From NCBI GenBank assembly GCA_965198115.1, contig OZ240241.1, positions 1,376,001-1,440,000 of the forward strand: a DNA stretch of 64,000 bases, written 5' to 3'. A program made the position numbers and the translations under genes. The notes under the pieces were generated by a model. The model saw nothing but the letters and a program-made list of their open reading frames with translations. It did no database searches and was not told the origin of the DNA. Below, in pieces: positions 43,730 through 60,575 of this stretch; the first letter of the stretch is position 1; each line of letters starts with the position of its first letter. This DNA is from Candidatus Latescibacterota bacterium (GTDB lineage: Bacteria > Latescibacterota > UBA2968).

Positions 43730-44296
43730 GGGTTCTCCCTTCACGCCGCAACCCGCATCGTGGCCGACGACCGATCCCGCCTCGAGCGCTTGCGCCGTTA
43801 CGTCATACGACCACCACTGGCCGCAGGCAAGCTCTGTGTTCTTGATAAAGAAACGTTGAGTTTCAGCCTCAAGACGCCTTGGTCCGATGGGACCACGCAC
43901 CTCGTGCTCTCACCGTTGGAACTGATCGAGAAGCTCGCCGCTCTTATTCCTCCGCCTCGTCTAAACCTTGTTCGTTATCTGGCGCCAAATGCCGCAAGTC
44001 GAGATCGCATCGTTCCAGGGCCACAGGAAGTGGTCGCCGAAGGCTGCGATCAGACCGAGCAACCCTCGTCACCCCAACCGGTCTATCGCCTCTCCTGGGC
44101 CCGCCTGCTTGCACGGGTTTTCCGCGTCGATGTGACGGAATGCCCTGCGTGTGGCGGGAAGATGAAAATCATCGCCGCATTGACCGAGCCCGTTGCCATT
44201 CGCACCTACCTCGACGGAGTCGGTCTGGCCTCGCGCCCGCCACCCATCGCCCCCGCACGTCTCCTCCCTCAAACTGAATTCGAATACGCGGATTAA
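43730..44296 (+). pseudogene. IS91/ISCR rolling-circle (Y2) transposase, C-terminal remnant
   Basis: LERLRRYVIRPP, LSPLELIEKLAALIPPPR..LVRY and WARLLARVF..D...CP.CGG. HGV is deleted. Confidence 0.85.
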
Positions 44297-44499
44297 CGCC
44301 ACCTTCCACTTGCGTGCGACCGCGGAGAAGTATGTCCTCGCAAGATGCACAGCGCACTTTCGACTCCGGCTAGCGGCACGTGGCCGCAACTCAACGAATT
44401 CCACGTCCAGCATACTGCAACCAGGCTTGCCGCAACCTTCGCCACGCCCGAACCTGTGCCATTACCCGAGCCAGGGAGTGAGAGAACACCCTTTATTCT

Positions 44500-45919
44500 G
44501 GCTATATCCGGATCTCTCAACGAGCTGAAGTGGGTGAAGGTGCCGTGGTTCCTGGCATGGGGGCGCGGTTAGCGTGTGCGGAACCTCTTCGGAATCTGCT
44601 CAGGGATGTTTATGTCTCCGACGGTAAGGAAGATCATATCGTTGAATGCGTCGAGTGTGCGGAATCCGCTGGCTCGGTTCTTGACGATTTGGACGATTCG
44701 GTTGAGGCCTTCGGCGATGGCGTTGGTAAGACGCGTGTTCACGAATGCGAGGACGCCGAAGAAGTGCTGTCGCAGGGTCCTGACGAACTTTCGCAGGGGT
44801 TCAAGTCGACTTCTGAGTGCGGACGTCGTCCAGCATTTCAGGAAGCGTTCGGCAGCCCAGGGCGCTTTGTATTCCCAGAACTGCTCGAACTCGTCCTTGA
44901 GTCTCCAGGCTCTATAGATTCGGTAGTTCGCCTTCTCCAGTGCTTTGAGTGTCCGAGTATCCCCTCTGGAGCGTGTCGCTGAGTGCCGGTAGAGGAGCCA
45001 TCGGAGGCCCTTCATGGCTTTGCGCTCATCCGGGGCAGCTTTACGCCACTGGTCCTTACGGACCTCGTCAACGGCGGCATTGAGAGCCTTGACGATGTGA
45101 AAGCGATCGAGGACCAGCTTGGCATTCGGACAGTGTTCCTGGATGGCTCCGATGTAAGCTTCGCTCATGTCGCAGCAGGCCCACTCGATCTTGGATCTCC
45201 GGTAGGGACTGAGAGCCTCTGTGAAGAACCGATCGATCGTTTTACGCGCCCTGCCGCGGCCAACCCACACCACGCAGGAGCGGTCCAGATCGTAAACGAG
45301 CGTGGCGTACCTGTGACGCTTGGCGTAGGAGATCTCGTCGATCCCGATGGTTTTGAGCCCTCGGATACGATGACCTTCACGAAGCCGCGTGATGGATCGG
45401 TGAAGGAGATCCGACAGCGTCGAGGCAGAGATGCGCAGTAACTCGGACGCCGCCTTCTGCGTCATGGTCTGGCAGTAGCGCAGCATGGCATACTCGAAGC
45501 GATACGTCACCCGAGAGAACCGCTCCGCCCACGGAATCTCCTCGACCACACGACCGTGGGTAGGACACCGAATCTCCCGAGGATGGTAGAGAAGCCAGAC
45601 CCTCCACCCGCACACCGGAATGTCACGCCACCGACGCGGATGGGGCATTGTGCGGACGATTTTACCTCGACGGCCGCACTCCGGACAACAACAACCATTC
45701 TTATGGGGCTTTACGGCGATGACGAAGCAGCTTCTCCCCTCAAACCACCAGCTGACAACACGGAACCCCTTGAATCTCAGCAGTTTCGATAGTAATCTGC
45801 TCCCGGTCATAGGTCGCACCCCCTTCGCTTTGATTGTCCTACACACACAACCAAGCGTAGGGAACGATCTATGACCTTGTCATTCTATAGTTTCACCGTT
45901 GAGAAACCCGGATAGAGCC
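44500..45919 (-). mobile_element. ISL3 copy 4, inserted in the oriIS-like end of the IS91/ISCR remnant
   Basis: IRs present, with 8-bp TSD tttattct. Confidence 0.95.
44569..45846 (-). CDS. ISL3 transposase
   Basis: Near-identical to the other copies. Confidence 0.93.
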   Translation of the reverse strand: MCRTIKAKGVRPMTGSRLLSKLLRFKGFRVVSWWFEGRSCFVIAVKPHKNGCCCPECGRRGKIVRTMPHPRRWRDIPVCGWRVWLLYHPREIRCPTHGRVVEEIPWAERFSRVTYRFEYAMLRYCQTMTQKAASELLRISASTLSDLLHRSITRLREGHRIRGLKTIGIDEISYAKRHRYATLVYDLDRSCVVWVGRGRARKTIDRFFTEALSPYRRSKIEWACCDMSEAYIGAIQEHCPNAKLVLDRFHIVKALNAAVDEVRKDQWRKAAPDERKAMKGLRWLLYRHSATRSRGDTRTLKALEKANYRIYRAWRLKDEFEQFWEYKAPWAAERFLKCWTTSALRSRLEPLRKFVRTLRQHFFGVLAFVNTRLTNAIAEGLNRIVQIVKNRASGFRTLDAFNDMIFLTVGDINIPEQIPKRFRTR

Positions 45920-45929
45920 TTTATTCTTC

Positions 45930-47580
45930 CTATCCGCTGCCCAACACCATCACCTCGCACTGGTGCACCGCTGGCCAGGGATCCGGTGTCTGCAGCCCAT
46001 CCAGCCCGAGTAACACCCGGTTCTCGCCGCGCTGGACAGGTGGATTCTCGGCGATGAGCCACGACTGGCCCCACTGGTTCTCGACGCTGGCCGCGCCGGA
46101 GAGTGAGACGTCCCGGCCGTTGACCTTGCACACGATGCGATCCATGTGCGATTCGCAATCGGTGAGACGCAGGCGCAGCTGCGTCCCCGCGATGCGACCA
46201 TCTGCCAGACCCGCTTCGATGTCGTCCTCGATGATGAGGCTCATCTCGTAGCCGGCGCCTCCAGTGCTGCGGGCAAACATGCTGAGCTCGCGCGGCACCT
46301 GCGGTCGGTGATCCTCCGGACGAGTGCGCCGGGTTGCCGAACAGGTGCGAATCCGAGACGCAGTAGCAGCGGTCCCGTTGTGCCAGCCTCTTCGGGTCGG
46401 TCAGATCGGTCAGGAGCTGCAGGTGGTCCTCGTTGTAGGTCTCCTCGTCTCTCGGTCCGGCGCGGTGGTGTTTGTAGTCGTAGTTGAACAGGTACACGCC
46501 GGCGGCGCCCTGCTCGTATCCGTTGAGGGCCACCGCCCGCAGCACCGCCGGCACAGCACTATCGTACCCCTCGTGAGGTGATGTCAGGTGCGTCGCGCCT
46601 TCGAAGCCCACGTAGATTAGCACGCCGGTGTCGCGAGCGCATTCTACGGCGTCGCCGATGTCGATGCGGGACGGGCAGTACGAAGCCGATGACAGCACGA
46701 ACAGATCGGCCACGGGCTCGCTGATCCACGTGCGCGCATCGATGCCGATTTCACGACCCTCGTCTAGGCAGGGTGGCACGCGGGTGATCAGCGCAATCTC
46801 CTTGCCCTTGTTATCGGATTGCTGGCGAACCGTTGCATGGGCTGCTCGCATGAAGTCGGTCAGCGTGTCGAGATTGTCGAGCAGGCGGCCAGGCTTGAAA
46901 TAGGGCGGGCCGCGCATCCAGTCGAGCTCCACGGCGTCGAAGTCGTAGCGCTCGAGGGTCTCATCGATCAAACCGAGAAAACGGTTGCGCACGTCTTCTT
47001 CTTCGTAGTTCCACTGCCAGCTGAAGTTCCAGCGATCGGCTCCGGGAGCAGGCGTCGGCAAGGGCGATCCGATCAGCAGATCGGGGCGGGTCTTCTTGAT
47101 GCGACTGCGCACCTGCCATTCTCGGGCCTCGTCGCACGTGTGGGCGTCGTTCATGCGGATCGATGCGATGGCGGTGATGCCGTGCTTGCGACACCCATCG
47201 ATGTAGATCTGCATGAGCTCGCGGCCGTCTTCTATCACCGCGTCCATGCAGTTGTAGAGTTGCTCGAGACGGCTCAACTCGAAACCACCAACAGTCATTT
47301 TGCGAATCGGGTTGCCGTCGGCGTCGAAATCCGGGTCGGGGTCCCAGATCTCGGTGTCGTCCCCCCACATGGCCGAGTGTGGGCTGCCGCGCCAGACCAC
47401 ATCGTCGTCGATGCCGATGAGACCGGCGAGCGCCTCCACCCCCGAGGGCACGAGCTGGTCCAGCTGATGCGTGACGTCGTCTGGATTGCGGTCCGGCAGA
47501 TAGAATAGCATCCAGTTGCCGTCGGTATTGAAAATCAGGCGCGACCACCGCTTGTTCCCCATCGACTTCTCCGTCATCAT
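45930..47580 (-). pseudogene. GHL10-like TIM-barrel putative glycoside hydrolase, frameshift near 46310
   Basis: LIFNTDG, ASIRMNDAH, YDFDAVELDWMR and GAAGVYLFNY. The C-terminus is in ORF 45930-46298. Confidence 0.72.
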
Positions 47581-47659
47581 GGCGCGGGTCATAGCCGCGC
47601 TAGCACTTTGCCTTTGGACATGGTTCGAGCCGACTACCTCCGGCACCGCAGAAATATGC

Positions 47660-47710
47660 GCCATTACCCGAGCCAGTGAGTGAGAGAACACCCTTATTCT
47701 TCCTATCCGC
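47660..47710 (+). repeat. Second copy of the oriIS-like end
   Basis: gccattacccgagccag.gagtgagagaacaccct.attcttcctatccgc matches 44458-44499 plus 45928-45937. Confidence 0.7.
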
Positions 47711-48277
47711 GCTGGCGAGCGCTCGAACTCGTGCAGGCCGACACCTATCCACAGCAATCCGATGCCGTTGTACAGCAGCCCATTCCCCCGCGCCCCTTCG
47801 ACCGCCTCCATGCATTCGGCGCAGAAGGTACCCAGCCAGTGCGTGAGGGCCGAAACTTGCCTGAGTAGCGGAAGATGTTTGTATCCGCTCACGCGTCGCA
47901 GGCGAGGTTCGATGTCGAGGAGTGCGGCAGCCACCCATCTGTGTCTCTGGGGAGAGTTGTTCCAGCGTCTGACCTTCCGAGTGAGGTCGCCGGTCATGCT
48001 GTTGAGGGTTCGATGCAGTTGGTGGTTCGGAAGCTTCGTTTCAGGAATGGGAGCATACCCAGCCGGTGGAGGGTCAGGGTTTCCTCCAGGCCTTCCTCGA
48101 GGCTCGTTACGGCAGACTGATTCATCAGCTTCAGTTCGGGTTTAAGTGATTCGAGTGCGGCCTTTGCCTCCTCGTAGGTGTCGCAGTCATAGGCTTTCTG
48201 AAGCTTCCGTCGAACTCTTGGACGTTCCCTCTCCGGGAGATAGCTGACGACATTCTCGCGCTTGTGCCACTGACAGC

Positions 48278-49651
48278 GAGCTATAATCAAAAGGTGTGGA
48301 AAAAGAGAAAGGGCGACCCTACCCTTCCCGTGAGATAGTTGATTCACACAAAACCGGGTGAGAGGCCCGGTTGGGAAGGAGGATCGCCGTGAAGGAACAT
48401 ACGCATAGAGCCCCATTGAAGTCCATGCCGACGTGGGAGACGGTTGACGATTGGATCCGTGAAGAGATCCAGGGCCGGTTCCAGTCCATTCTGGAGGAGG
48501 AGGCGACCGCGTTCTTGGGCCGGTCGTGGTATGAGCGCCGAGCCGAGGTCGATAGCTCCACGGGCTACAGGAACGGCTACGGCAAGCCCCGGCGTCTCTC
48601 GACGAGCTGCGGAACGATCAAGGTCCGGCGTCCCCGGGTTCGTGGTCTGGAAGAGCGGTTTGAAAGCCGCATCCTCCCCCTGTTCGCCCGGAGAACCAGG
48701 GCCATTGGAGATCTGCTTCCCGACCTTTATCTCCACGGTCTCTCCCAGGGCGACTTCGAGTTGTCTTTGCGTGCGCTGCTCGGTGATGGCGCGCCGCTTT
48801 CGCCGACCTCGATCGCTCGTCTTCGAGGGAAGTGGGAGGTCGACTTCCAGGACTGGAAAGAAAGGCGTCTGGATAATCGCGAACTGGTCTACGCCTGGGC
48901 TGATGGCATCTACGTCAAAGCCGGGCTCGAGCGCGAGAAGGCGTGTCTGCTGGTCGTGATCGGCGCGATGAGCGACGGCAGCAAGGAGATCCTGGCGATA
49001 GAACCCGGTTATCGAGAGTCTACAGAATCCTGGCTCACGGTGCTCCGGGATCTCCGGGATCGCGGGCTCGAACATCCTGTCCTGATCGCCGCGGACGGGA
49101 ATATGGGCATCTGGGCGGCCGTTGATCAGGTCTGGCCAGAGAGCCGGCAACAACGGTGCTGGAACCACAAGATCCTCAACGTGCTCGACAAGGTCGCCAA
49201 GCGTGCACAGGCTGAAGCCCGCGCACTGCTCGTCCAGATCCCCTATGCCGGCACGAAAAAGGAGGCCGAGAAGCTCCGGAAACGCTTTGCCGCACGGTAT
49301 CGCTCACAGTTCCCTGCCGCCGTGGAGACGCTCGAAAGAGACTGGGATCGGATGGTCACGTTCTACGACTTCCCGAAGGAACACTGGAAACACCTGAGAA
49401 CCACGAACGTCGTCGAGAGCCCCTTTGCTTCCGTTCGGCTTCGCACAAACGCCGCCAGGCGATTCAAGAAAGTCAGGAACGCCACGACTCTCATCTGGCG
49501 TACGCTCAAGGTCGCAGAGAGCCGATTCAGGAAACTCACCGCGCCACACTTGCTACAACAAGTCTACGATCAGAAACACTCAACCGGACCGCAGGTCGAA
49601 GCCGGGAAGATGGCCGCCTGATTTCTTTTACACACCTATCGACCTGAACTC
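48278..49651 (+). mobile_element. IS256-A copy 5
   Basis: IRs present, with 8-bp TSD ctgacagc inside IS256-C. Confidence 0.95.
48371..49621 (+). CDS. IS256 transposase
   Basis: Near-identical to the other copies. Confidence 0.95.
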   Translation: MGRRIAVKEHTHRAPLKSMPTWETVDDWIREEIQGRFQSILEEEATAFLGRSWYERRAEVDSSTGYRNGYGKPRRLSTSCGTIKVRRPRVRGLEERFESRILPLFARRTRAIGDLLPDLYLHGLSQGDFELSLRALLGDGAPLSPTSIARLRGKWEVDFQDWKERRLDNRELVYAWADGIYVKAGLEREKACLLVVIGAMSDGSKEILAIEPGYRESTESWLTVLRDLRDRGLEHPVLIAADGNMGIWAAVDQVWPESRQQRCWNHKILNVLDKVAKRAQAEARALLVQIPYAGTKKEAEKLRKRFAARYRSQFPAAVETLERDWDRMVTFYDFPKEHWKHLRTTNVVESPFASVRLRTNAARRFKKVRNATTLIWRTLKVAESRFRKLTAPHLLQQVYDQKHSTGPQVEAGKMAA

Positions 49652-50119
49652 CTGACAGCGATGCACGCGCACATACCCTTTGAGGGCTTTGGTGACAGCA
49701 CTGCGGAGCCCCTTTGAGCCGTCAAGCACAACGAGGAGGCCTTGATCGTAGCACAGGCCTCTCCGGATGAGGTCCTGGATCAGCTGGCGGCAGATCCGTT
49801 CGTTCTCCGTCGCCGATTCGACGAAGCCCAGGGGGATCTTCTGGCCGTCCATCGTGACCCCCAGAGCGATCACGATCTCTTCGTCGGCAAAGCTCTTTCC
49901 GTCAATGAACAGGGTCACGAAGCCGTAGTCGTCGAGGGGACGCTCCTGGAACTGCTTCAGCTTCTTCGCGGTGGCTTTGATGAACCGCCGCGAGACGGAG
50001 GACGCTGAGATACCAAACGCTTCTGGAACCGATTCGGCACAGGCCTTGTAGTTGCGGCACGAGATCCCCTTGAGAACACGAAGCAACAGCCCCTCGTCCG
50101 TCTTCTTGGGCGTCTGTAG

Positions 50120-50913
50120 TGTGACGCCTTGCGATAATTCTCCGCCCGGCTTAAGCTATTCGCAGAATAGGCAGAATCGTTTCAATACGGTTAACAGTGG
50201 AGACCGTTCCCTAATGAGTTGAGGGTCACCTAAGATCTGGCGGCCATGCGACATAGTGCCATAGGAGTACTTACAAGGCGCAACGGCCAAAAGCGGTTGT
50301 CGGACCTACGCCTGATGTCCCTTTCTTTACGCGAACGCGTTTGGCACATTCCGGGGGATCGGGACGCGAAACGCTCTCGACCTCCGACGGAGTCCACGAC
50401 CGGCAGCACCGCCAGGGAGACGGCCGATTTTCTACCCCGCTTCGCCATTTTCGGGAAGCACCTTCAAAGCCGCCTTGTCGACAGACGCAAGCTCTTGTTT
50501 TTGCACTGGTTTAAGTGTTTCCGACACCTGAAAAAACCCCCTTTCGTCGACAACGGCCGCGATGCGCCCTCCGGAACGAAAATTAGGACGGATTAGTAAA
50601 AGAAACGGTCTCAACCGGTGTCCAAAAGAGAGCTGACCGTTTCCACCCCCCCTACCCCCCCGGTGCGGGCCTCGGGCCAGCGACGCGCCCAGGGCCAACA
50701 CCGCGCACCCCCCTATGCCCGCTGGGACCTGGCCTGACCACGTCTTGAGCCTAATCGGTCCTATTTCTCGCGGCGTGTGGGAAAATGAAAAAGGGCGCGG
50801 TCTACATCGGAACGCCCAGAGAGTTCATCCCCCTTAGCCCCGGGTCGTCAGTTCTTGGTGCGTGAGAATGCGAATAGCGTAACTTGGGAGGGAACCTATC
50901 GTAAGCCGTAACA
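50120..50913 (+). repeat. 794-bp MITE-like unit, copy 1
   Basis: About 45-bp imperfect terminal IRs. Apparently identical to 60674-61467. Confidence 0.9.
50230..50448 (-). pseudogene. Short ORF with terminase-small-subunit-like N-terminus
   Basis: MAKRGRKSAVSLAVLP, downstream of a G-rich cos-like motif. Confidence 0.35.
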
Positions 50914-51051
50914 ACTATGTCGCATGGCCGCCAGATCTTAGGTGACCCTCAACTCATTAGGGAACGGTCTCCACTGTTAACCGTATTGAAACGATTCTGC
51001 CTATTCTGCGAATAGCTTAAGCCGGGCGGAGAATTATCGCAAGGCGTCACA
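50914..51051 (-). repeat. Inverted copy of the first 138 bp of the 794-bp unit
   Basis: Exact reverse complement of 50120-50257. Confidence 0.92.
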
Positions 51052-51404: not shown

Positions 51405-54400
51405 TTAAGCCGGAAGCCCCACAAATAGCCGACTCCACACATCCTCCAGCGAATCCACTTCGCCTGTTTCCGCAGCCCGTGCAAAAACAACTCCTGGGCG
51501 TCTCACATTGTGGGCTCTCGCAAGCACTCCATAGCCTTTAATCTCTGCCTGCAGCTCTTTGTCGAACTCCTCCATCTCGTGTACGATTCCCGCCAGGCCG
51601 CGCCGGGCACCCGGAACGCGCCCGAAGACCTCGGCAGGAGTCAGCCCTTCGGCCCACCCGTGTGGAATCGGTACCAGATTCATCTCCATATCTCGTACCA
51701 CACCGGCTCCCCCGAGATACTGTTTCAACTGACGCTCATTCCCTCGAGCACCGGACTTGAACATCAGGTTTATTGGCCCCCATCCATCGCCGTCGAATAC
51801 GTCCGACCTCACCACATAGCCTTCGATCTCCTGGGCATACGCCTGCCACTCATCCGCATCGTTTCCTTTAGGTTTTGGGGGCAGTTCCAGATCCGATCCT
51901 ACAAACGGTCCCATAGACAAGCCCAGCGTCTTTGCCACATCGTAGCCTCGATGCATCAGCTTCTGCGATACATCCAACGCAGCCTCGGGTCCTTCCCTGT
52001 CAAGAACTTCTGCCATCGCCTCAATCACGGTGGAATGAGTAACCATACCGTGCGTGGTGGCAATCGAGGCCCCGGCTAGCTCCTCGATCTCTCTCAGCCC
52101 CTCCGGTGATCTGCTGAGTTCCGCAAGCCCCATCATAGCGTCCATCCTGGGAGGTAGCGCCTGAATCAGTCCGGGATCTCGCCGGAGGTGGCCTGCCACG
52201 CTCAGGAGATCGGCCGCCTCCTTTTGTCCTGACTCGGTCAGGGGCAGGTAGACAGCTGCCTGATCTCCATCGAAATCCGCATTCATCATCTCGCAGACAA
52301 GCGGATGTACACGCAGCACATTTTCCGGAATGCGTCTCGGCCGGAAAACGACGAACGACATCGGGGCAACGGCAGGGGCCCGATAGAGAATCAACCACGA
52401 TGACGCCATCGCCTTGTCCAGCGCTTCGGCGCCCCTTTGGCTACGCTCTTGCACAGGCCTGGGATCTCCCAGCTCTCGAACGGCCAGAGGCCCGAACAGC
52501 GACCAAGCTATTTCTTCTGCCACGCCCAGCTCATCAATGCCCAGCTCAGGCCCGGGGGCAATCACCGTCCGTCCACTGAACAGAACGCGTGACTGGAACG
52601 CCATTTTGTCCGGGTGTACCAGCGCATCCAGATATTCTGCAACCCGGGCCCCCAGGTGCTCCGCAGCTTTGCGCGTAAGCGCCTCAGGCATCCCATCCTT
52701 CAGCATGCGCGACAACCGATCGTTCGATGCGGCCAGAGCAGCATATTCCACCAGATCCTCTGCAACCCCCACCACATCACAGGATCTGCTCGCATTCCAC
52801 GGATGCGGGACAGGCCTGATAAGCCCCAAGACATCGCCATGCGGCTCGACGAAGTCAAAGGTCAGCCTGGAGTCTCCGAGCGCGGCTCTGACTCCGCCCG
52901 CCCTCAACCCCTCCTGTATGCGCAGGAAACCGGCGCGAGGAGGTGCAGCCTGCGAGATGCTCCCTGAAGCCACGCGATCCTCCAGGGAGTCCGATCCCTC
53001 CTGTGCCGCCGCACACGTGTGGCTCTGCTCGCGGATGGTCTCGTATGCTCCAACGTCCGCCAGAACCCGATACTCCGTCTCCCCCATGGCCTGCCCACGA
53101 TAATCTCCGGGAGCCGTCCCCGAGTGGATCTTGTCCCTCACCAAGTGAGAAGTGACTCCCCAGTAGACCCAGCCAGCCGTACTTCGACGCTTCAGGGGAT
53201 GACCCTTCACCGTCAGCGCCTCCATACCATCTTCATCCAGCCCGGCATTCTGCAGCTGCTCGCGAAGCGCTTCTGCCTTGGGCGCTGAAAACGGAGGAAC
53301 AATGCACGGCGAACCGGTCGCCTTCGCGATCCGTCCCATTACTGCTTCCCGAACAGCGCCGTAAGCCATTCGGGACGGGAGGCTACATACGCTGTAGATG
53401 AGCTCAACGGGCGTCCCATCGGCGAGGGTTGGCATCTCCGCATCGGGCAGAATACGGCCGACCACACCCTTGTGTCCGTGGCGATTCGACAGCCTGTCTC
53501 CCACAGCAAGAATGTTAGGTGTCCGCATGCGGTCCGCACACGACTCGCTCACCACGATCGAATCCTCGAACGCATCCCCATCCCACGAGATGAACGCCGT
53601 CAACAGATTGTGTCCCATCCAGAAGAAGGGTGTGTCCGGCTCGTGTCCTGTTTGCACCAAAGCCGGTTCGGGCGCCATTCCCTCCGCTTCGCTCATCATC
53701 TGTTGATAGGCGTGGAAGTCACCGGCTTCCTGGATCGGCATCTCTGGATCAGGCTTTCCAATCCATTGGCGCATCATATTCACGCCCATAAGGATCCGGT
53801 TCGAATCGCTGTGCTCGAGGAAGGGAATCGATGCAGCGCCCATCCCCAGCGTGCCTTCGGGACTGTCGTCCACGATCACGATCCGGTCGTCTTGGATGGC
53901 GGCGCCCCGCGCAATCTCCAGAATCAACCCGATATTCGGTCCTTCCGGAGTGCAGAACGGGCAGACCCGTCCCTGCTGACTGGCGACTACTACCGGAATA
54001 CCCGTCAATCTGAACGGGGGCGCCGCTTCCCGTCCGATATGTTCAAGGGATAGGCGTCTCAAGTGCGTGTAAACGTCCAGCCAGTTCGTCACCTGCAGGT
54101 ACTGTGAACTACCCTGGTGTTGTCGGTATCGGCCGTTCAGATAGGTGTGCCACTGCCCGACGTGGAACTCCTGAAACCAATCGTCGATCGGCAGCCACGA
54201 TCTGGTCAGATCAGCATCCCAGGACAGGCTATGCGGGGCGTCTCCCAGACGTTCGGCTATGAAATCCCGCAGCTGATCTCCCACGCAGCTGATCTCCGCA
54301 TCAACCAGGTCCGGGGAGGATGCCAGCGGCACGACCACCCGGTAGCTCCCTTCTACTTTGAACACACCGGCATCGTCCGGTTTCGGCAGATTGTCGAACG

Positions 54401-54581
54401 AGAGCAGCACATCGCCGTCCGCGCCCTGAACGATCACTTCCACGCTACACGTGTATGGTCCTGTCGACTCCGTACGGTAGTCCACTAACGGCACCCGCTC
54501 TCTCAACAGATCGGGAAGGAATTCGTTGACGAATCGATCCCACGACTCCTTGTGCCAAGGGGCAGCATCATTCAAAGACAT
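51405..54581 (-). CDS. Miniaturised single-chain RNA polymerase beta-beta' fusion (RpoB/RpoC-derived, 1058 aa)
   Basis: beta motifs: CPFCTPEGPNIGL, IPFLEH.D.NR.LMG.NM.RQ, FEDSI, GDRLSNRHGHKGVV, PSRM, HLV.DK, GQ.MGE.E. beta' motifs: FSGRTVI, RAP, HPLVC..NADFDGDQ, SGARG, GARRGL. The ATG overlaps the sigma stop (TGATG). Confidence 0.92.
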   Translation of the reverse strand: MSLNDAAPWHKESWDRFVNEFLPDLLRERVPLVDYRTESTGPYTCSVEVIVQGADGDVLLSFDNLPKPDDAGVFKVEGSYRVVVPLASSPDLVDAEISCVGDQLRDFIAERLGDAPHSLSWDADLTRSWLPIDDWFQEFHVGQWHTYLNGRYRQHQGSSQYLQVTNWLDVYTHLRRLSLEHIGREAAPPFRLTGIPVVVASQQGRVCPFCTPEGPNIGLILEIARGAAIQDDRIVIVDDSPEGTLGMGAASIPFLEHSDSNRILMGVNMMRQWIGKPDPEMPIQEAGDFHAYQQMMSEAEGMAPEPALVQTGHEPDTPFFWMGHNLLTAFISWDGDAFEDSIVVSESCADRMRTPNILAVGDRLSNRHGHKGVVGRILPDAEMPTLADGTPVELIYSVCSLPSRMAYGAVREAVMGRIAKATGSPCIVPPFSAPKAEALREQLQNAGLDEDGMEALTVKGHPLKRRSTAGWVYWGVTSHLVRDKIHSGTAPGDYRGQAMGETEYRVLADVGAYETIREQSHTCAAAQEGSDSLEDRVASGSISQAAPPRAGFLRIQEGLRAGGVRAALGDSRLTFDFVEPHGDVLGLIRPVPHPWNASRSCDVVGVAEDLVEYAALAASNDRLSRMLKDGMPEALTRKAAEHLGARVAEYLDALVHPDKMAFQSRVLFSGRTVIAPGPELGIDELGVAEEIAWSLFGPLAVRELGDPRPVQERSQRGAEALDKAMASSWLILYRAPAVAPMSFVVFRPRRIPENVLRVHPLVCEMMNADFDGDQAAVYLPLTESGQKEAADLLSVAGHLRRDPGLIQALPPRMDAMMGLAELSRSPEGLREIEELAGASIATTHGMVTHSTVIEAMAEVLDREGPEAALDVSQKLMHRGYDVAKTLGLSMGPFVGSDLELPPKPKGNDADEWQAYAQEIEGYVVRSDVFDGDGWGPINLMFKSGARGNERQLKQYLGGAGVVRDMEMNLVPIPHGWAEGLTPAEVFGRVPGARRGLAGIVHEMEEFDKELQAEIKGYGVLARAHNVRRPGVVFARAAETGEVDSLEDVWSRLFVGLPA

Positions 54582-55186
54582 CAGTCTCCTCCCTCTCCCT
54601 CGAATCTCCGCCATTGTCGGGCAAGCTCCTTCCGGGCGTGATGAAGCCTCGACTTCACAGTGCCTTCCGGCACACCCAGCCGTTCGGCCACCTCGCGCAT
54701 CTCCATCTCTGCATCGTGCACCATCCGGACGACCTCGCGTTTCTCCTCCGGAAGCTCATCGATACGTCGCTGCAGCCACTGGTGTCGCTCACGCTGTTCG
54801 ACCCGAGCATCTGGGCCAAGTGAAGCGCTGTCAACGAGCCATCCAGGAGTGAGCGTATCGTCGTCATCCTGCACGCCATCGAGCCAGAGAACCGGCTCGG
54901 TCGGTGCCTCTCGTCGTCGACGGACCCACCGGAGGTGATTGTAGGCCAGGTGTGTGCCGATTCGAAGCAGCCACCCCTGCAGCGTCCCGCGGCATTCCCA
55001 CTGATCGGCCCGGCTCCAGAGACGGATAAACACCTCCTGCACCAGGTCTTCAGCCGAGGCAGAATCGCGGACAATTCTGTTAACGCAGGCCTTTATCTGT
55101 CCCTCAAACCTGTCGAAAACGACCTCGAAAGCCTGTTCGTCCCGGTTCAGGATTCTGTTCACAAGCTCTCGATCCGTCTCTGCCAT
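54581..55186 (-). CDS. ECF (sigma70 group 4) sigma factor
   Basis: Region 2 AEDLVQEVFIRLW...WLLRI..HL.YNHLR, and region 4 LPEEKREV...EVAERLGVPEGTVKSRLHHAR. Confidence 0.93.
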   Translation of the reverse strand: MAETDRELVNRILNRDEQAFEVVFDRFEGQIKACVNRIVRDSASAEDLVQEVFIRLWSRADQWECRGTLQGWLLRIGTHLAYNHLRWVRRRREAPTEPVLWLDGVQDDDDTLTPGWLVDSASLGPDARVEQRERHQWLQRRIDELPEEKREVVRMVHDAEMEMREVAERLGVPEGTVKSRLHHARKELARQWRRFEGEGGD

Positions 55187-55204: not shown

Positions 55205-55231
55205 AGGACACCACAAATTGAACCGAGTTCA
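55205..55231 (-). promoter_or_regulatory. Candidate autoregulatory ECF promoter
   Basis: Minus strand TGAACT-N16-GTCCT about 20 nt upstream of the sigma ATG. The -35 lies in the palindrome TGAAC-tcg-GTTCA. Confidence 0.45.
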
Positions 55232-55688
55232 TTCGATTATCGACATCTTCTACAGACTGCGCAGATGGCACAGACATTGTACTCCAGCTGTACCATCCCT
55301 CGCAGCTCGTTGCGGATCCAAGAAGAATGGGCACGTCCTCTACCTTCTAAGGACATGCCCAAATCTGAAAACAGGTTTCAGGTCAGTTGCGCCCCGTTCC
55401 AATGGCATTCCGGGGATACCGAGGGGCTAAGGGTTCAGCGTTCTACCGATGCGTGCCACTTAAAGTATTTCGCTCTGCCCTTGTTCCAGGCGGTCACTTT
55501 CCTACCTTGCAGGATGTCAAGCTTCCATCGACCGACTCTCGGTCCGCCTCACACACAACAAGCCTCATACAACAACTAGGCACACTCGCCGGTTTACTTG
55601 ACGTAACGTGCTCCTTTTCGGTAGCCTGTTCCTTACGTGCGTGGCGGTCACCAGCTTTATGGCCCTATGTCCATGCGCAACCCGTCGC

Positions 55689-56218
55689 GGTCAAGTCCCA
55701 TAGTCAGTTGAAAACTCATCGGGCCCCGTAGTTTGGTCAGGCTCTCTTTTGAGCATTCTGTTCGTTGTCGAGATTCAGATCTTTGTTCAGTGCTTGCCTG
55801 AGTAGGGGAAGATGTTTGTATCCGCTCACGCGTCGCAGGCGAGGTTCGATGTCGAGGAGTGCGGCAGCCACCCATCTGTGTCTCTGGGGAGAGTTGTTCC
55901 AGCGTCTGACCTTCCGAGTGAGCTCGCCGGTCATGCTGTTGAGGGCTTCGATGCAGTTGGTGGTTCGGAAGCTTCGTTTCAGGAATGGGAGCATACCCAG
56001 CCGGTGGAGGGTCAGGGTTTCCTCCAGGCCTCCTCGTTGTGCTTGACGGCTCAAAGGGACTCCGCAGTGCTGTCACCAAAGCCCTCAAAGGGTATGTGCG
56101 CGTGCATCGCTGCCAGTGGCACAAGCGCGAGAATGTCGTCAGCTATCTCCCGGAGAGGGAACGTCCAAGACTCTCTTCGTCGGCAAAGCTCTTTCCGTCA
56201 ATGAAGAGGGTCACGAAG
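55689..56218 (-). mobile_element. Scrambled IS256-C remnant (3' end plus an inverted and a deleted internal piece)
   Basis: 55689-56031 matches the IS 3' end, about 56030-56170 is an inverted internal piece, and about 56172-56218 is another internal piece. Confidence 0.85.
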
Positions 56219-57111
56219 TGTTCGCGACGTCTGTTGTGTCGAAAGACGAACTCATCCAAGTAGACTTGGAGCTGTTCACGACTGACGCCGTGATGCGTGC
56301 CAACCAGCCATTGCTGAAGGTTTCCGATCGCTCGGTCCACCAGAGGCACCACGGATTCCGCTCCCTTGCGAAGTTCCGCCCGATGCGGCTGGGAACGGGC
56401 AACGTGGTAGCCTTTCGCGTTGAGTTTCTCAAAACTCTTGAGTCCGTCAGTGTGGATCGTCGAGCCGGGCGTGACGTTCTGTTTGGCGAAGTCAACGAAC
56501 GTTGTCGACTTGAAATCTGGAATCACGGTCATGCGGAGACGCCCGGATCTGTTTGATCCGCGTTTCTCTACAGCAACCAGTACGAGCGCCGCACGGCGGC
56601 CCTTGAGCTGTCGGCTTCCGCGGAGTCCGGGTTGAGGCCCGCCGATCCAGGTGTCATCGATCTCGACCTCTCCGTGGAGGGGTTCACGCGCCTCATTGAC
56701 CATTGCTCGTCGAAGCTTGTGAAGCATCATCCAGGCGGTTTCGTAGCGCTTGAGCCCCAGTTGACGCTGGATGAGAAGCGCCGAGATCCCACGTTTGTCG
56801 GTGGTCATCAGGTAGGCAGCCCAGAACCAAGCCGTCAGCGGCGTTTTCGTCCTGTGAAGAACCGTCCCGGACGTCAGCGACACTTGATGCCTGCAGGAAA
56901 ACACACTCCCACTGTCGGCGTTTGGCGACCGTGTAAGCTCGATCGTGACCACAGCGTGGGCAGACGAAACCGTCAGGCCATCGACACATCGCCAGGTAGT
57001 CTTGACACGCCTCTTCGGTAGCGAACTGGCGCTGAAACTCGCTCAGGTTTTTCGGGAACGGAAGTCTTCGCACGCCCGAACACTACATGATAGTGCCCTC
57101 CTGAGTCAACC
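56219..57111 (-). mobile_element. IS1595-family element, frameshifted and 3'-truncated
   Basis: RWPDGFVCPRCG, SGTVLHRTK, EIDD, IHTDG, GTHHGVS and YLDEFVFRHNRR. Confidence 0.88.
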
Positions 57112-57129
57112 AGGATCGGATTCCGCTCA

Positions 57130-57600
57130 AACAGACTGTTGCGGAGTTCTTCAACGGTGGTCTTGAAGTAACGCACCCAGAGCAGGTTCTCCTTGAGAAT
57201 GCGGATGAAACGCTCGGCGCAACCCCTTCCTTCCGGGCACGCACAAAGCTTGGCGAGGCCTCGATACCCTGGGAGGCGATCTCGAAAGGCGTCAGAGACG
57301 TATTGGGACCCGTTGTCGTGACAGACGCGGGCGAGGCCTTGAGCGATGTCCTTTACCAAGGCGCCGAAGTGACGGCGGACGCCCTGTCGTGCAGTGATCG
57401 ACCGCCACGAACACACTTGCCGTGCCTTCCCCGGTCGTGATCGTCTGAGTCAGATCCGTGCCCACATCGCGTCAGGGATCGGAGTCGTGATCGTGCCGTC
57501 GTGGGCTGAGGACCGCGGCGTGACCCTGTCCGATTGGGTGCCTGTGAACCGTTCTCACGCATCAGACTGTCCTCCTACAGTTCCAGCACACATACAACCA
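57130..57600 (-). pseudogene. Heavily degraded IS3/IS481-type integrase remnant
   Basis: HDNGSQYVS and AERFIRILKENLLW. Confidence 0.6.
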
Positions 57601-58295
57601 CCGGTGGATCGTCCAGCGACACGGCTACAAGACGCCGACTCAAGTCCGAGCCGAGAAACTGGCGGCCAGACGCGCCGACTGAATACACTCACTGGCGTGC
57701 CAGGTTACGCAGGGCTTTATAATCTTGGACCTGGAGCGGATGCCGTTTCAGCGCTGGGAAGCAGCCCCGCAAGCAGCCTTTTCGAGTTGCAATCCCTTAC
57801 GCGGCGTATGTCGACTGTCCTTGACCAGTCCCGGATACCGAGCGTCCGGCACTGAGGTGCTACGGCTGTCACAAAGCGTTCTCTGCGGCGAGCCCCTCTT
57901 ACCGCGTTAGCTCGACCGAGGACACACCCGAAAGATCGGCGATTGGGAGATCGGCGGCACCTTCGTCCGCCGGGCAGCATGCCCGAGGCCAGATCGTCCA
58001 AGACCGCGTCGGCCAGACTGCCCGGCCGTGAGCGTCCAGCGCCCCAGCGAGTAGGATTCCCCGATCCGGCACATCTGGTCCCGGCCAGCCTCAGACAAGA
58101 TTGCAATCCGCGTCGATTGCCACTCCCGACGACGCTCGGCCCTGGTAGGTTCGCCGGCGCCTTCGCATCCGACAGCAGCCCTCGCCGTCGGTGAACGGAG
58201 TCCCGCGCGCCAGACGGTTCTTCAGCTGTACGCGCATCTCCTGAGGGTCGCAAGAGATCGTCTTCGTCGAACGCCGCCCTGAACGACGGCGGGCA

Positions 58296-59678
58296 TCAGC
58301 TTGTATCCGTCCTTCCGCCTCCGGCCTGAAAGTCGCCCAGGTCCTGCTCGTAGAGGCGCTCGAGCAGGGCCTCCCTCCGGCTCTTCGGCAGGGCTTTGAA
58401 GTTCCGCGCGTCATCGGGGACCGGCGCCACCGCCGCGACGGTAGAGGCCCGGTCGTCGACCCACACCACGAGGCGCGACGGGTCCTCACGTTCGCGCTGG
58501 AAGCCCACCGTCACCTTCTGGCCCACGACCGAGAGGAACGGCTCCCTCCTCGGCAGCTGCCACGCCTTCCCGCAACACCGCACCGTCAGGTCCCCGCGCA
58601 CCACGGCCTGGACGCGGTCGTAGAGGTAACGCTCCCACACCTCAGAAGGCATCACACGCACGGCACCGGCCAAGCCGGCCGACCACCTGAGAAACGGCGG
58701 CTCGGCCGTCACGGCGTGCGCCCGGGCGTTGACTTTGTGCAACAGATCCAGCAGCAGCGCGTTGGCCTCCTCCAGAGAAAGACGCACGCCCTGGTCGACG
58801 TGCACACGCAGCAGCGCCGTCAGCCTCCGCTTGAGCGTTCCGATCTGCCGCTCCACCTTTCCCTTGGCCGCCGGGTTCCCCACGCGGTGACGCTTGAACG
58901 TCACGTCCACGTCTTGAATAAACTGCCGGAACAGCGACGACTGCGGCGCGCTGTCGTTGTCCGAATACAACACAACCGGACACCCGCAGAACGGGAACGC
59001 CGCTTTCTCCTCCCAGGCCCGTGCGCAGAAGTCGACCCAGTTGAGCGCGTGCTTGCCGAAATAGAGCCGTGCATACGTCGCCCGCGAATAGTCGTCCACC
59101 AGACAGAACAGGTGCAGGCGGGGGCGCCCGTTCCGGGAACGCGCCCTCCCTTTTTTCTTATCCGCCGCGCCGATCGAGCCGTCGGGTGCGACGAAGTAGC
59201 GCGGCAGCTCCGTCACGTCCAGTTGGTGCAGCCCGTTCGAATGAGGCGCCTCCCAACGCCGGTGCGGCACCGTCTTGAGCCGGGACGTGACCGGCCCGGT
59301 CAGCCGCCTCGGCGCCGTCAGCTGCTTCAGGCTCACCCCACGGGACCGCAAAAAGCCGTTATACGTCGACACCGAGATCGCTTTCGGGGCGATCCAGCCC
59401 TGAGCCTCGGCCTGCGCGATCACGGCTTCGGCCGTCATCCCGTAGCGCACCGTCAACGCCATCATCTTCAGCATCGCGCGGTCGCTCACGTCCACCCGCC
59501 GCCGTCCCTGGTCGGAACGCCTGGACCGCCGACCCTCCTGCCCGACCCACCGGTAGACCGTCGACACGTGAACGCCCAGCGTGTGCGACCACCCGTAGAC
59601 CGCGGCCGTGAACGCGCCCCCTTCCAACCCCCGGCACGAACGACGCACCTCCTCGATGATTTTTGGACCATACGCCAC
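58296..59678 (-). CDS. Mu/B3-type DDE transposase (integrase); C-terminus probably frameshifted
   Basis: N-terminal HTH (VSTVYRW, RRSDQG) and DDE core HQLD...VDDYSR...LYSDN...NPAAKGKVER. Confidence 0.85.
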   Translation of the reverse strand: MAYGPKIIEEVRRSCRGLEGGAFTAAVYGWSHTLGVHVSTVYRWVGQEGRRSRRSDQGRRRVDVSDRAMLKMMALTVRYGMTAEAVIAQAEAQGWIAPKAISVSTYNGFLRSRGVSLKQLTAPRRLTGPVTSRLKTVPHRRWEAPHSNGLHQLDVTELPRYFVAPDGSIGAADKKKGRARSRNGRPRLHLFCLVDDYSRATYARLYFGKHALNWVDFCARAWEEKAAFPFCGCPVVLYSDNDSAPQSSLFRQFIQDVDVTFKRHRVGNPAAKGKVERQIGTLKRRLTALLRVHVDQGVRLSLEEANALLLDLLHKVNARAHAVTAEPPFLRWSAGLAGAVRVMPSEVWERYLYDRVQAVVRGDLTVRCCGKAWQLPRREPFLSVVGQKVTVGFQREREDPSRLVVWVDDRASTVAAVAPVPDDARNFKALPKSRREALLERLYEQDLGDFQAGGGRTDTS

Positions 59679-59729
59679 GGCAGACCTGCCTTTCCTTTGT
59701 AGCCCCTTGTCTTAGGGGGCGGAGACGCC

Positions 59730-60575
59730 TCAGTCCTCCACGCCGGATACGCCCTCAGCGATGTGGAACCGCGTATCGGAGAGCCCATCGGGCGTCAGGA
59801 CGTGCACGATACCCGTCACCTTCTGGCTCAGCGTGCAACCGAACGCCTGCACGGCGTCACGAACGGGCGCCTTTGACAACCCTTGATCGCCATATTCTTC
59901 GGCATACTCCAAAGCCATACGTTCGAGCACCCCGACAACCCGGATCGCACGCGCGAACTGCGCCTCAAGCCGTATCAGCGGCGGCTGCGCGTCCTCGCCC
60001 TCACGCAGCAACCGGTTCTCGGCCGCCAAACCCCGTGATCTCGCCTGCTCCGCCCTCAGCGTCCCCCGGAGCGCCGCGTTTTGCCCTCGCGACTGCCGCA
60101 GTGCTGCCTGAAGCTGCCGGTAACCCATCGTGGCCACGTCGTCCAGTTTTCTTCCCAGAAACGATTGACGCGACATCGCCTCCCTCATCTCCTCATCCGA
60201 CACATCCAGAAGCGCAAGCATCTTCTTCTTCGAATCCCCCGAAACAGCCTTCAAAAATGACCGCGCGAGCGGACATTCCGACTCCACAACACGCTGCGCC
60301 ACGCGCATGAACTCCGAACTGCGCTGACGGCTCATCCCCAACTCACCAACCCACGCCACGAACCGGCCGTGGCCGATCGTCCCTTTCACCCAGATCAGAT
60401 ACTTCCCGATCGTCACCATCTCCTCCAAGACGCTCATCCCCACGTCCAGAATCCGCTGCTTGATACGATCCAGATCGAAATCAAGACCGTCCTGATACGC
60501 CGCCAGATCCGGCGCGGCTTCCGAGGCGGCGCCTGCAGACCTACGGCCAGATGTCGAAACCTCCGAATCCCTCAT
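59730..60575 (-). CDS. DUF3102-like phage protein
   Basis: IGKYLIWVK....HGRFVAWV...GMS.....FMRVA. It lies directly upstream of the transposase, as in transposable phages. Confidence 0.75.
   Translation of the reverse strand: MRDSEVSTSGRRSAGAASEAAPDLAAYQDGLDFDLDRIKQRILDVGMSVLEEMVTIGKYLIWVKGTIGHGRFVAWVGELGMSRQRSSEFMRVAQRVVESECPLARSFLKAVSGDSKKKMLALLDVSDEEMREAMSRQSFLGRKLDDVATMGYRQLQAALRQSRGQNAALRGTLRAEQARSRGLAAENRLLREGEDAQPPLIRLEAQFARAIRVVGVLERMALEYAEEYGDQGLSKAPVRDAVQAFGCTLSQKVTGIVHVLTPDGLSDTRFHIAEGVSGVED

Follow-up and report, generated by a model that had tools for sequence, protein, structure and literature searches.

A single-chain RNA polymerase-derived protein encoded with an ECF sigma factor in Latescibacterota, and its possible role as a core-mimicking anti-sigma factor

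Introduction

Bacteria are generally taught to have one RNA polymerase (RNAP) core. Here we describe a 64,000-nucleotide stretch of DNA (the window) from a Candidatus Latescibacterota bacterium (assembly GCA_965198115.1, contig OZ240241.1, forward-strand positions 1,376,001 to 1,440,000), in which a heavily reduced single-chain beta–beta′ protein, hereafter the mini-RNAP, is encoded directly after a sigma factor of the extracytoplasmic function (ECF) type. Systems that resemble this pair in one respect or another have been described. In every two-barrel RNAP that has been compared structurally, the bridge helix and the beginning of the trigger loop are retained (PMC10770324), and a trigger-loop-deleted archaeal RNAP formed no initial bonds and elongated about 30-fold more slowly while retaining RNA cleavage (PMC3737540). 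RsiV, an anti-sigma factor, is at the same time a sensor and an inhibitor of its ligand, and releases its sigma for lysozyme (PMC5014341). In an ECF holoenzyme structure, acidic residues of the sigma touch three arginines and a glutamate of the beta′ coiled coil, and sigma region 4 binds the flap tip (PMC12019637). The Escherichia coli beta′ substitutions R275Q, E295K and A302D impair holoenzyme formation (PMC8321222).

The stripped core described here is a second one, kept under purifying selection in several uncultured phyla and paired with one ECF sigma. We tentatively read it, at somewhat below even confidence, as an RNAP-mimic anti-sigma factor, which would also be its sigma's likely only output and would sense a nucleotide or short-RNA-like ligand. 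A full-text literature search, judged largely by titles and the starts of abstracts and with most subscription papers beyond its reach, found no published description of such a sigma plus mini-RNAP system. The ECF reclassification paper (PMC7826278) gave no match to Rpb or to the promoter motif in its main text or in the searched part of its supplement, and this sigma may yet belong to one of the described ECF groups. New here are a test pointing to a self-only regulon, the one-way co-loss of the two genes, altered clamp residues and a predicted contact with sigma region 2.

The two-gene unit

The unit consists of the following features.

51405..54614, minus strand: single-chain beta–beta′ RNAP-derived protein, 1069 aa from the first ATG, likely 1058 aa from Met12 (54581)
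54581..55186, minus strand: ECF sigma factor, 201 aa, regions 2 and 4 (Pfam Sigma70_r2 and r4_2), with a family-specific acidic/PGWMID linker (alignment of 76)
55207..55231, minus strand: putative ECF-type promoter TGAAC-N14-GGTGTC, 20 nt 5′ of the sigma start; the family form is N15

The larger open reading frame (ORF) carries the Pfam domains Rpb2_3, Rpb2_6 and Rpb1_2 in one chain; a first-pass annotation, made over 51405..53570, had covered residues 349-1069 of it. Its true start is probably Met12, judged from where the family alignments begin; this codon overlaps the sigma stop (TGATG) and is preceded by GGAGG. Normal rpoB and rpoC are present in the same genome, as is a second sigma and mini-RNAP pair (3367482-3371737), whose sigma is 53% and whose large gene is 39% identical to those of the first, and whose promoter lies about 250 nt upstream, farther than usual.

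Architecture of the mini-RNAP

The domain map comes from profile alignment (hhalign) against 18 canonical RpoB and 18 canonical RpoC sequences, with E. coli numbering.

52869..54581, minus strand: beta-derived half, aa 12-582, corresponding to beta 29-148, 446-825 with internal cuts, and 1057-1342; lobe, flap and switch 3 deleted
53766..54119, minus strand: RNA-path and initiating-site residues, aa 166-283, with equivalents of beta Q513, H526, R529, P564-G566, N568, R678, N684, R687 and Q688
53499..53564, minus strand: flap deletion scar, aa 351-372 (D814 to G1063 equivalents), 22 aa versus 250 in E. coli
52752..52868, minus strand: remnant of the beta′ N-terminus, aa 583-621, without Zn finger, zipper, clamp head or lid; aa 594-608 weakly resemble beta′ 103-117
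52626..52751, minus strand: clamp helices, aa 622-663, corresponding to beta′ 267-308; predicted sigma-2 dock, with the rudder deleted just after
52263..52283, minus strand: NADFDGD catalytic motif, aa 778-784, from alignment counts
51546..51638, minus strand: bridge helix, aa 993-1023, full length, degenerate in sequence after GARxGL
51408..51545, minus strand: post-bridge tail, aa 1024-1069, weakly co-linear with beta′ ~1312-1357; no space for trigger helices, jaw or second Zn site

On the beta side, residues 19-97 align with beta 29-148, 101-154 with 446-509 (weakly), 166-362 with 508-825 and 366-582 with 1057-1342. On the beta′ side, 594-608 align with beta′ 103-117 (weakly), 622-700 with 267-370, 674-903 with 344-641, 920-1022 with 683-798 and 1042-1066 with 1330-1354 (weakly). 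The intervals between retained blocks are much shorter than in E. coli: 17 versus 310 residues for the lobe, 22 versus 250 for the flap, 14 versus 27 for the switch 3 region, 26 versus 162 for clamp head and lid, 29 versus 54 for rudder and switch 2, and 24 versus 49 for the rim helices. From the bridge helix to the C-terminus (R780-A1335 interval) there are 44 residues instead of 556, and 41-60 across the family; the flap interval D814-G1063 has a median of 22 in both family alignments. Since these lengths are nearly fixed across the family, the deletions are old and common to its members. Fork loop 2 is deleted in most relatives (17 versus 28), but the window copy has a low-confidence loop of similar length.

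Interval length is stronger evidence for the loss of the trigger loop than a profile search for trigger helices. A trigger-loop motif after the bridge helix was matched by regular expression in 0 of 187 family proteins (nine loose matches lay elsewhere in the chain) versus all 18 canonical RpoC controls, and the Cys4 Zn-finger motif in 0 of 187 versus 17 of 18. No extra copy of the trigger helices that could act in trans was found in 144 loci or elsewhere in the genome outside rpoC, by a test that also missed short retained segments. Interval lengths and profile searches likewise revealed no flap, lobe, Zn finger, lid, rudder or jaw in the mini-RNAP. As read from the alignments, the trigger loop, flap and Zn finger are lost family-wide together with the lobe, switch 3, lid, rudder, clamp head, jaw and one rim helix. 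The first-pass annotation had named the first three of these, correctly, and had overlooked most of the others; its count of residues between FEDSIVVSES and GDRLSNRHG, the site of the missing flap, is exactly 13.

What has been kept is equally defined. The clamp coiled coil, also recognized at first pass, aligns over residues 622-700 with an hhalign probability of 97%. The bridge helix had been described as giving way to the C-terminus shortly after its start, and the chain does jump there soon after; however, the helix is not shortened, as the model contains a 31-residue helix at 993-1023, and only its second half is degenerate, positions 785-802 being without the canonical residues. The proposed likeness of the tail to the extreme beta′ C-terminus holds in part: the match to beta′ 1330-1354 is co-linear, ungapped, 32% identical and the sole hit in beta′, but its hhalign probability is 0.3%, so that the assignment rests on shared invariant columns.

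An AlphaFold2 model built from a 121-sequence alignment has a mean predicted local distance difference test score (pLDDT) of 91.7 and a predicted template modelling score (pTM) of 0.91. Fold comparison (VIA) of residues 1-582 gave Z 29.5 and a root-mean-square deviation of 2.9 over 533 residues to 8i23_C, among RNAP second-largest subunits. The two-barrel fold and the DxDxD metal motif are thus both found, VIA covering residues 1-582 and the beta′ half being judged from other fold hits and the profile alignment. The beta half superposes on RNAP subunits, and the alignments brought up no equivalent of the trigger loop or flap.

Conservation of the active site

The roles of the E. coli residues and domains discussed here are established knowledge. 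Both double-psi barrels are present, with NADFDGD and the equivalents of beta D814, K1073, R1106 and H1237. Conservation was counted in the alignment of 121 sequences (120 close relatives and the window copy) and in 66 divergent full-length representatives of 34-48% identity, taken from 148 new ids by length (900-1110). The catalytic aspartates are kept almost throughout (of 121 and of 66, respectively: D460 117 and 64, D462 120 and 64, D464 121 and 63), as are the beta residues D814 (117 and 61), K1065 (119 and 60), K1073 (120 and 62), R1106 (119 and 65) and H1237 (119 and 60) and the beta residues of the RNA path, R678 (114 and 65), R687 (119 and 65) and Q688 (120 and 64). In beta′, R425 is kept in 118 and 55 and R731 in 97 and 61, whereas N458 is looser (92/121 and 39/66) and frequently Asp; the template-side residues R346 and R352 are kept in 49/66 and 58/66. 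Residues that bind metal, nucleoside triphosphate (NTP) and RNA are therefore retained even at 34-48% identity. The ratio of nonsynonymous to synonymous substitution (dN/dS) is 0.13-0.20 (36 pairs among nine orthologues of one genus).

On this comparative evidence, selection preserves the two-metal site, the contacts to NTP phosphates and the RNA path, but has not preserved the elements by which a core grips downstream DNA, holds the bubble and closes the active site. All of the active-site equivalents listed at first pass were found again. The arginine reported there in place of K1065 is real, but only in the window copy, and as a functional clue it was rejected as a local substitution.

Pairing with the sigma factor

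The family is large: the 120 best matches listed are full length and 44-90% identical, with source names that include Poribacteria, Hydrogenedentes, Chloroflexi, Gemmatimonadota and Armatimonadetes besides Latescibacterota, and the ESM Atlas holds family clusters bearing only generic names. An ECF sigma gene lies upstream in 74 of the 75 loci that include upstream DNA (from our loci L001-L081; six more are cut at the gene start, and some are near-duplicates). Among 168 genomes of the phylum, the sigma family occurs in 63, and all 63 have the partner (61 with E=0 matches; in G119 and G156 it is cut by contig ends). Partner DNA is present in 67 of the 168: the sigma is missing in G143, where the partner is intact, and in G146 and G135, where the partner is partly deleted, and one more is cut by a contig end. 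A partner thus persists without an intact sigma in these three genomes as well as in G140 and L006. In one genus the unit is decaying (L132, L150, L250, L253), the sigma being deleted or frameshifted and the large gene intact or partly deleted.

In 46 of 107 pairs, the sigma stop and the mini-RNAP start share 4 nt or 1 nt. Across 111 loci there is no third conserved gene; no replication gene is conserved nearby, neighbours are varied and the flanks differ from locus to locus. An exporter half of the ABC family lies inside the operon in eight genomes of one genus and in G107, with BlaI/BlaR1-like genes downstream in that genus; save for these genus-limited genes, no recurring resistance gene family was seen among 64 neighbours scanned. 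Where such exporter halves stand between sigma and mini-RNAP in two genera (L134 3008-4798; L137 3333-5090), they are 40% identical to each other. Other inserts include a 381-aa gene inside the operon (L136 6470-7612; also L088, L096 and L103) with no Pfam, NCBIfam or PHROG match, and, once each between the two genes, a nucleoside phosphorylase and an M29 aminopeptidase (L005 4135-4944; L043 1103-2212).

In complete genomes the mini-RNAP copies are chromosomal. That the family belongs to a mobile element was considered and rejected: no plasmid match extended over 80% of the query, and among the 80 best viral loci there were only distant RNAPs. A tree of 18 canonical and 22 family sequences separates the two groups by a long branch (support 1.0), with the mini-RNAP family evolving much faster than canonical RNAP; it has no outgroup and hence points to no donor lineage. 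A search for longer fused forms returned, among 73 matches, only canonical-type RNAP subunits of 24-43% identity, which is weak evidence. A Pontibacillus record labelled as a plasmid (L248 1394-9306) has consecutive beta, beta′ and alpha genes that branch apart from the other canonical RNAPs.

The sigma is of the ECF type (group 4): its only sigma regions are 2 and 4, a bipartite promoter motif lies upstream of it, and it scores 94 bits with TIGR02937 versus a cut-off of 42.9. Its linker (54785-54913, residues ~92-134) contains an acidic run and is conserved as well as regions 2 and 4, with PxW[MLIVF]xD in 59 of 76 sigmas; a profile of it matches only the two family sigmas among the 22 sigma-like ORFs of the genome. 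The PGWMID segment is a candidate, from its sequence, for occupying the partner's RNA path. Homology of the linker to sigma70 region 3.2, which it resembles by eye, went undetected by profile alignment and is kept as a lead.

A putative promoter in front of the sigma's own operon

Of 75 non-redundant sigmas, 69 have the motif TGAAC-N15-GGTGTC at a distance of 17-55 nt upstream, versus 1 of 70 control stretches, and the spacer is 15 nt long in 67 of these 69; one genus has GGCGTC in place of GGTGTC. The window promoter, with its 14-nt spacer, is the sole match in the window, where 0.07 would be expected by chance. In 21 genomes of one genus every operon has the site, and exact matches elsewhere number 41, below the 71 of the controls; in two complete genomes the operon site is the only match. 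Recurring other sites that were fetched lay inside long ORFs in seven of seven cases. In the genome of the window, upstream intergenic sites, based on crude gene calls, numbered five and eight at spacers of 14 and 15 versus one to seven at ten wrong spacers, which is not a clear excess, with 62 at spacer 19, probably a repeat. A promoter-like TGAAT-N14-GGTGTC at 3187619 (minus strand), about 110 nt before a gene that by eye resembles a GNAT acetyltransferase, is within noise. Judged from these site counts, the sigma's own operon is likely its only detectable target. The fixed spacing between −35 and −10 elements suits a flap-bearing core, which the mini-RNAP is not.

The predicted sigma dock

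On the clamp helices, P288 is kept in 60 of 66 divergent members, a leucine at I291 in 58 and R278 in 43. A model of residues 265-1069 in complex with the sigma reached a score of 0.62 versus 0.00 for the best control; of solved pairs, 116 of 157 attain this mark, as do 2 of 215 mismatched pairs. At least 21% of contacts are common to the runs, and the partner's pLDDT does not fall below 58. All confident contacts lie between residues 622-660 and sigma region 2. The clamp helices had been proposed at first pass as the site for this region, which the model favours.

Discussion

The preferred interpretation, that the mini-RNAP is an anti-sigma factor imitating the core, starts from the sigma: a sigma that appears to activate its own gene has to be held in check, and no conserved candidate for this other than the partner is seen. 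Any binding of the partner to sigma region 2 would be at a surface for which the host core competes. An anti-sigma for a sigma with no other target would make little sense unless it also served as the effector; no other target of this sigma was detected, and the active site is under selection. The host's normal core, guided by the sigma, would transcribe the two-gene operon from TGAAC-N14/15-GGTGTC, and coupled translation would make both proteins in step. The mimic would then capture sigma region 2 on the surface that the sigma needs for the host core, and the resulting holoenzyme, without flap, lobe, jaw, rudder, lid and trigger loop, would be a dead end that keeps the loop off. Once a ligand occupied the RNA-product path or NTP site, the sigma would be released and more of the mimic would be made, and the extra mimic may mop up the ligand or slowly process it. 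We would rank short RNA or RNA–DNA hybrid ends above a small-molecule RNAP inhibitor as that ligand. Both the inhibition of the sigma by the mini-RNAP and the ligand-driven release are what we infer. The first-pass annotation had left the choice between regulator and enzyme open, and its anti-sigma branch gains from the constant pairing, the coupled codons, the self-only promoter, the absence of a third gene and the predicted contact. With its active site under selection, the protein is unlikely to be a purely inert decoy.

Several points weigh against this interpretation. R275 is replaced by Ala or Ser (Ala in 49/66) and E295 by Ala (43/66), although both are invariant in all 18 canonical RpoC sequences, a change overlooked when the clamp helices were first proposed as the dock. 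From the numbering offset, we take the clamp residues contacted in the ECF holoenzyme to be R275, R278, R281 and E295; with the E. coli mutants impaired at two of these positions, sigma binding may be weak or absent. Judging from the alignment, the dock is altered in a way that could mean weaker binding or narrowed specificity. The complex model omitted residues 1-264, its contact is the textbook interface, and the model may recall solved holoenzymes and so shows likeness rather than binding; as modelled, it fits an anti-sigma complex and a holoenzyme equally. YonO transcribes efficiently without trigger-loop homology, and its authors regard many such domains as unnecessary when conditions are mild (PMC5467207); in yeast, the pGKL2 enzyme is functional although it lacks the lid, the rudder, the rim helices and most of the clamp (PMC6211774). 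YonO's activity means that domain losses are no proof of a dead end. The one-way co-loss would also be expected if the sigma just had no use in the absence of its target, and the related genomes in which it was counted are not independent. This genome contains 16 exact promoter matches versus 7 in controls, and 10 high position weight matrix scores versus 1 in the shuffle; four relatives without the module show a similar excess (7-13 exact matches versus 1-2 in controls), which suggests base composition as the cause. No other regulon target was detected above background by a test to which only near-consensus sites are visible.

The strongest alternative is a slow, sigma-guided polymerase, a minimal holoenzyme that would open DNA via sigma region 2 and make short or even long RNA. 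Both barrels, both metal sites, the RNA-path residues, R346/R352, the F-loop and the bridge helix are kept, the structural model is confident, the complex with the sigma is just as suited to it, and minimal fused RNAPs do function, as seen with YonO (PMC5467207) and yeast pGKL2 Orf6/Orf7 (PMC6211774). However, trigger helices are found neither in cis nor, as far as searched, in trans, the second half of the bridge helix is not conserved, and flap docking for sigma region 4 and the grip on downstream DNA are missing. Productive transcription by the pair seems unlikely because the compared two-barrel RNAPs keep the trigger-loop start (PMC10770324) and the loop-deleted archaeal RNAP did not initiate (PMC3737540). 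A polymerase whose only detected promoter is its own would also form a loop without output. We therefore regard this alternative as unlikely, while giving it real weight. The first-pass suggestion of primer synthesis, if de novo, is weakened in particular: without its loop, the archaeal enzyme failed to form initial bonds (PMC3737540), and the neighbourhood contains no conserved replication gene.

An effector enzyme independent of the sigma, for example one that cleaves or extends short RNA or hybrid ends, is improbable. The sigma would then merely express it and be under some other control, and the clamp helices would be a structural leftover. This would suit an active site better conserved than the clamp, where R275 and E295 are replaced, and a partner that outlives its sigma in a few genomes; archaeal RNA cleavage, too, needed no trigger loop (PMC3737540). 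It would, however, leave a sigma that appears self-activating with no other regulator conserved nearby, and the exposed clamp tip (P288, the leucine at I291, R278) is kept and forms the predicted interface.

An antibiotic decoy, which would soak up and sense inhibitors binding to the initiation or NTP site of RNAP, is likewise doubtful, and a shade more so. We take GE23077 to bind at the site of beta E565/G566/N684/K1073, and S531 and fork loop 2 presumably line the rifamycin pocket. The residues around the former site are kept, but the same residues bind substrate and RNA, so that their retention is uninformative here. A regulon limited to the operon itself would be in keeping with a decoy, and the ABC exporter half of one genus and G107, together with the single insertions of nucleoside phosphorylase and M29 aminopeptidase, may be read in the same sense; against this stands the lack of a recurring resistance family among the 64 neighbours outside the genus-limited ABC and BlaI/BlaR1-like genes. 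Rifamycin sensing, which the earlier proposal of an antibiotic sensor could have included, is disfavoured, as residue S531 varies among members and 72/121 and 49/66 of them have a deletion of fork loop 2, so that the pocket is not preserved. Finally, a catalytically irrelevant decoy or decaying pseudo-polymerase, suggested by broken or partly deleted copies (L005, L062, L066, G135, G146) and by the fast evolution of the family, is hardly credible and, on the alignments, largely refuted already by conservation: the catalytic triad in 63-64 of 66 divergent members, the low dN/dS and deletion boundaries fixed family-wide.

Returning to the core-mimicking anti-sigma factor, its fullest form would be a domesticated RNAP core turned into a one-chain sensor, which forms a fake holoenzyme with a private sigma, reads its ligand in the two-metal site and thereby switches on its own production; we hold this version slightly more tentatively still. 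If true, such an RNAP-derived sensor would be a new class of anti-sigma factor and the first cellular two-barrel protein to work without a trigger element. If it is a regulator, the mini-RNAP would offer a novel means of controlling a sigma factor and might serve to sense transcription stress; if it is an enzyme, nature would have supplied a test of the minimal requirements of a bacterial RNAP, notably of whether catalysis without trigger helices is useful.

Surroundings of the unit in the window

About 350 nt 3′ of the mini-RNAP gene lies a perfect 138-nt inverted repeat with arms at 50120-50257 and 50914-51051, 656 nt apart, which has the appearance of an insertion element that is non-autonomous or damaged. 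On both sides of the two-gene unit (43760-50086 and 55657-60575) there are ORFs and fragments that by eye resemble transposases; its relatives are not consistently next to such genes. A 705-aa ORF at 45880-47997 (minus strand) has a transposase-like start and a weak glycosyl-hydrolase-like match (E 0.014), and is possibly a gene broken by insertion.

Comparison with known systems

We compare the mini-RNAP with four kinds of described protein. First, it resembles bacterial RpoB and RpoC working with an ECF sigma in its bacterial-type motifs, beta-then-beta′ order, two double-psi barrels, NADFDGD motif and clamp helices, and its best PDB sequence matches are bacterial beta and beta′ chains, foremost Firmicutes beta (fold match of the beta half, Z ~29-30). 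In contrast to RpoB plus RpoC, it has ~1060 instead of ~2750 aa and no flap, lobe, switch 3, Zn finger, clamp head, lid, rudder, first rim helix, trigger loop or jaw. It is also unlike the natural RpoBC fusions (NCBIfam PRK09603 and PRK14844), against which it scores 172 and 166 bits versus cut-offs of 5372 and 4632, and it reaches no curated cut-off for rpoB, rpoC or rpoBC.

Second, yeast pGKL2 Orf6 is likewise a fused beta–beta′ chain of about 1000 aa (982) without lid, rudder and rim helices (PMC2919709; PMC6211774). However, it belongs to a eukaryotic virus-like element, its beta′ part continues in a second subunit, Orf7, and it has neither the clamp coiled coil nor a sigma, whereas the mini-RNAP combines in a single chain the coiled coil and the C-terminal piece of beta′, with no gene for a second subunit.

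Third, phage SPbeta YonO, P23-45 gp64/gp96 and phi14:2 gp66 are single polypeptides with two barrels, and YonO functions although it shows no trigger-loop homology (PMC5467207). These RNAPs come from viruses and their sequences are very far removed; where structures exist, the trigger-loop start is present (PMC10770324). The mini-RNAP, in contrast, is chromosomal. Neither YonO, gp64 and gp66 nor pGKL2 Orf6 is among the top PDB sequence or fold matches listed, through which alone they were compared.

Fourth, the mini-RNAP gene stands directly after that of an ECF sigma, in gene order and overlap, as genes of ECF anti-sigma factors do, and RsiV with sigma-V is a functional analogue in being anti-sigma, sensor and ligand inhibitor at once (PMC5014341). 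Unlike ECF anti-sigma factors, the mini-RNAP has an RNAP fold, no anti-sigma domain and no clear membrane helix (maximum 19-residue hydropathy 1.37), and it would block the sigma by imitating the core enzyme. Thus, the mini-RNAP resembles a fragment of core RNAP and sits where an anti-sigma factor sits, and it falls outside canonical RpoB, RpoC and RpoBC, outside the phage and plasmid RNAPs by location, and outside the known anti-sigma classes by domain.

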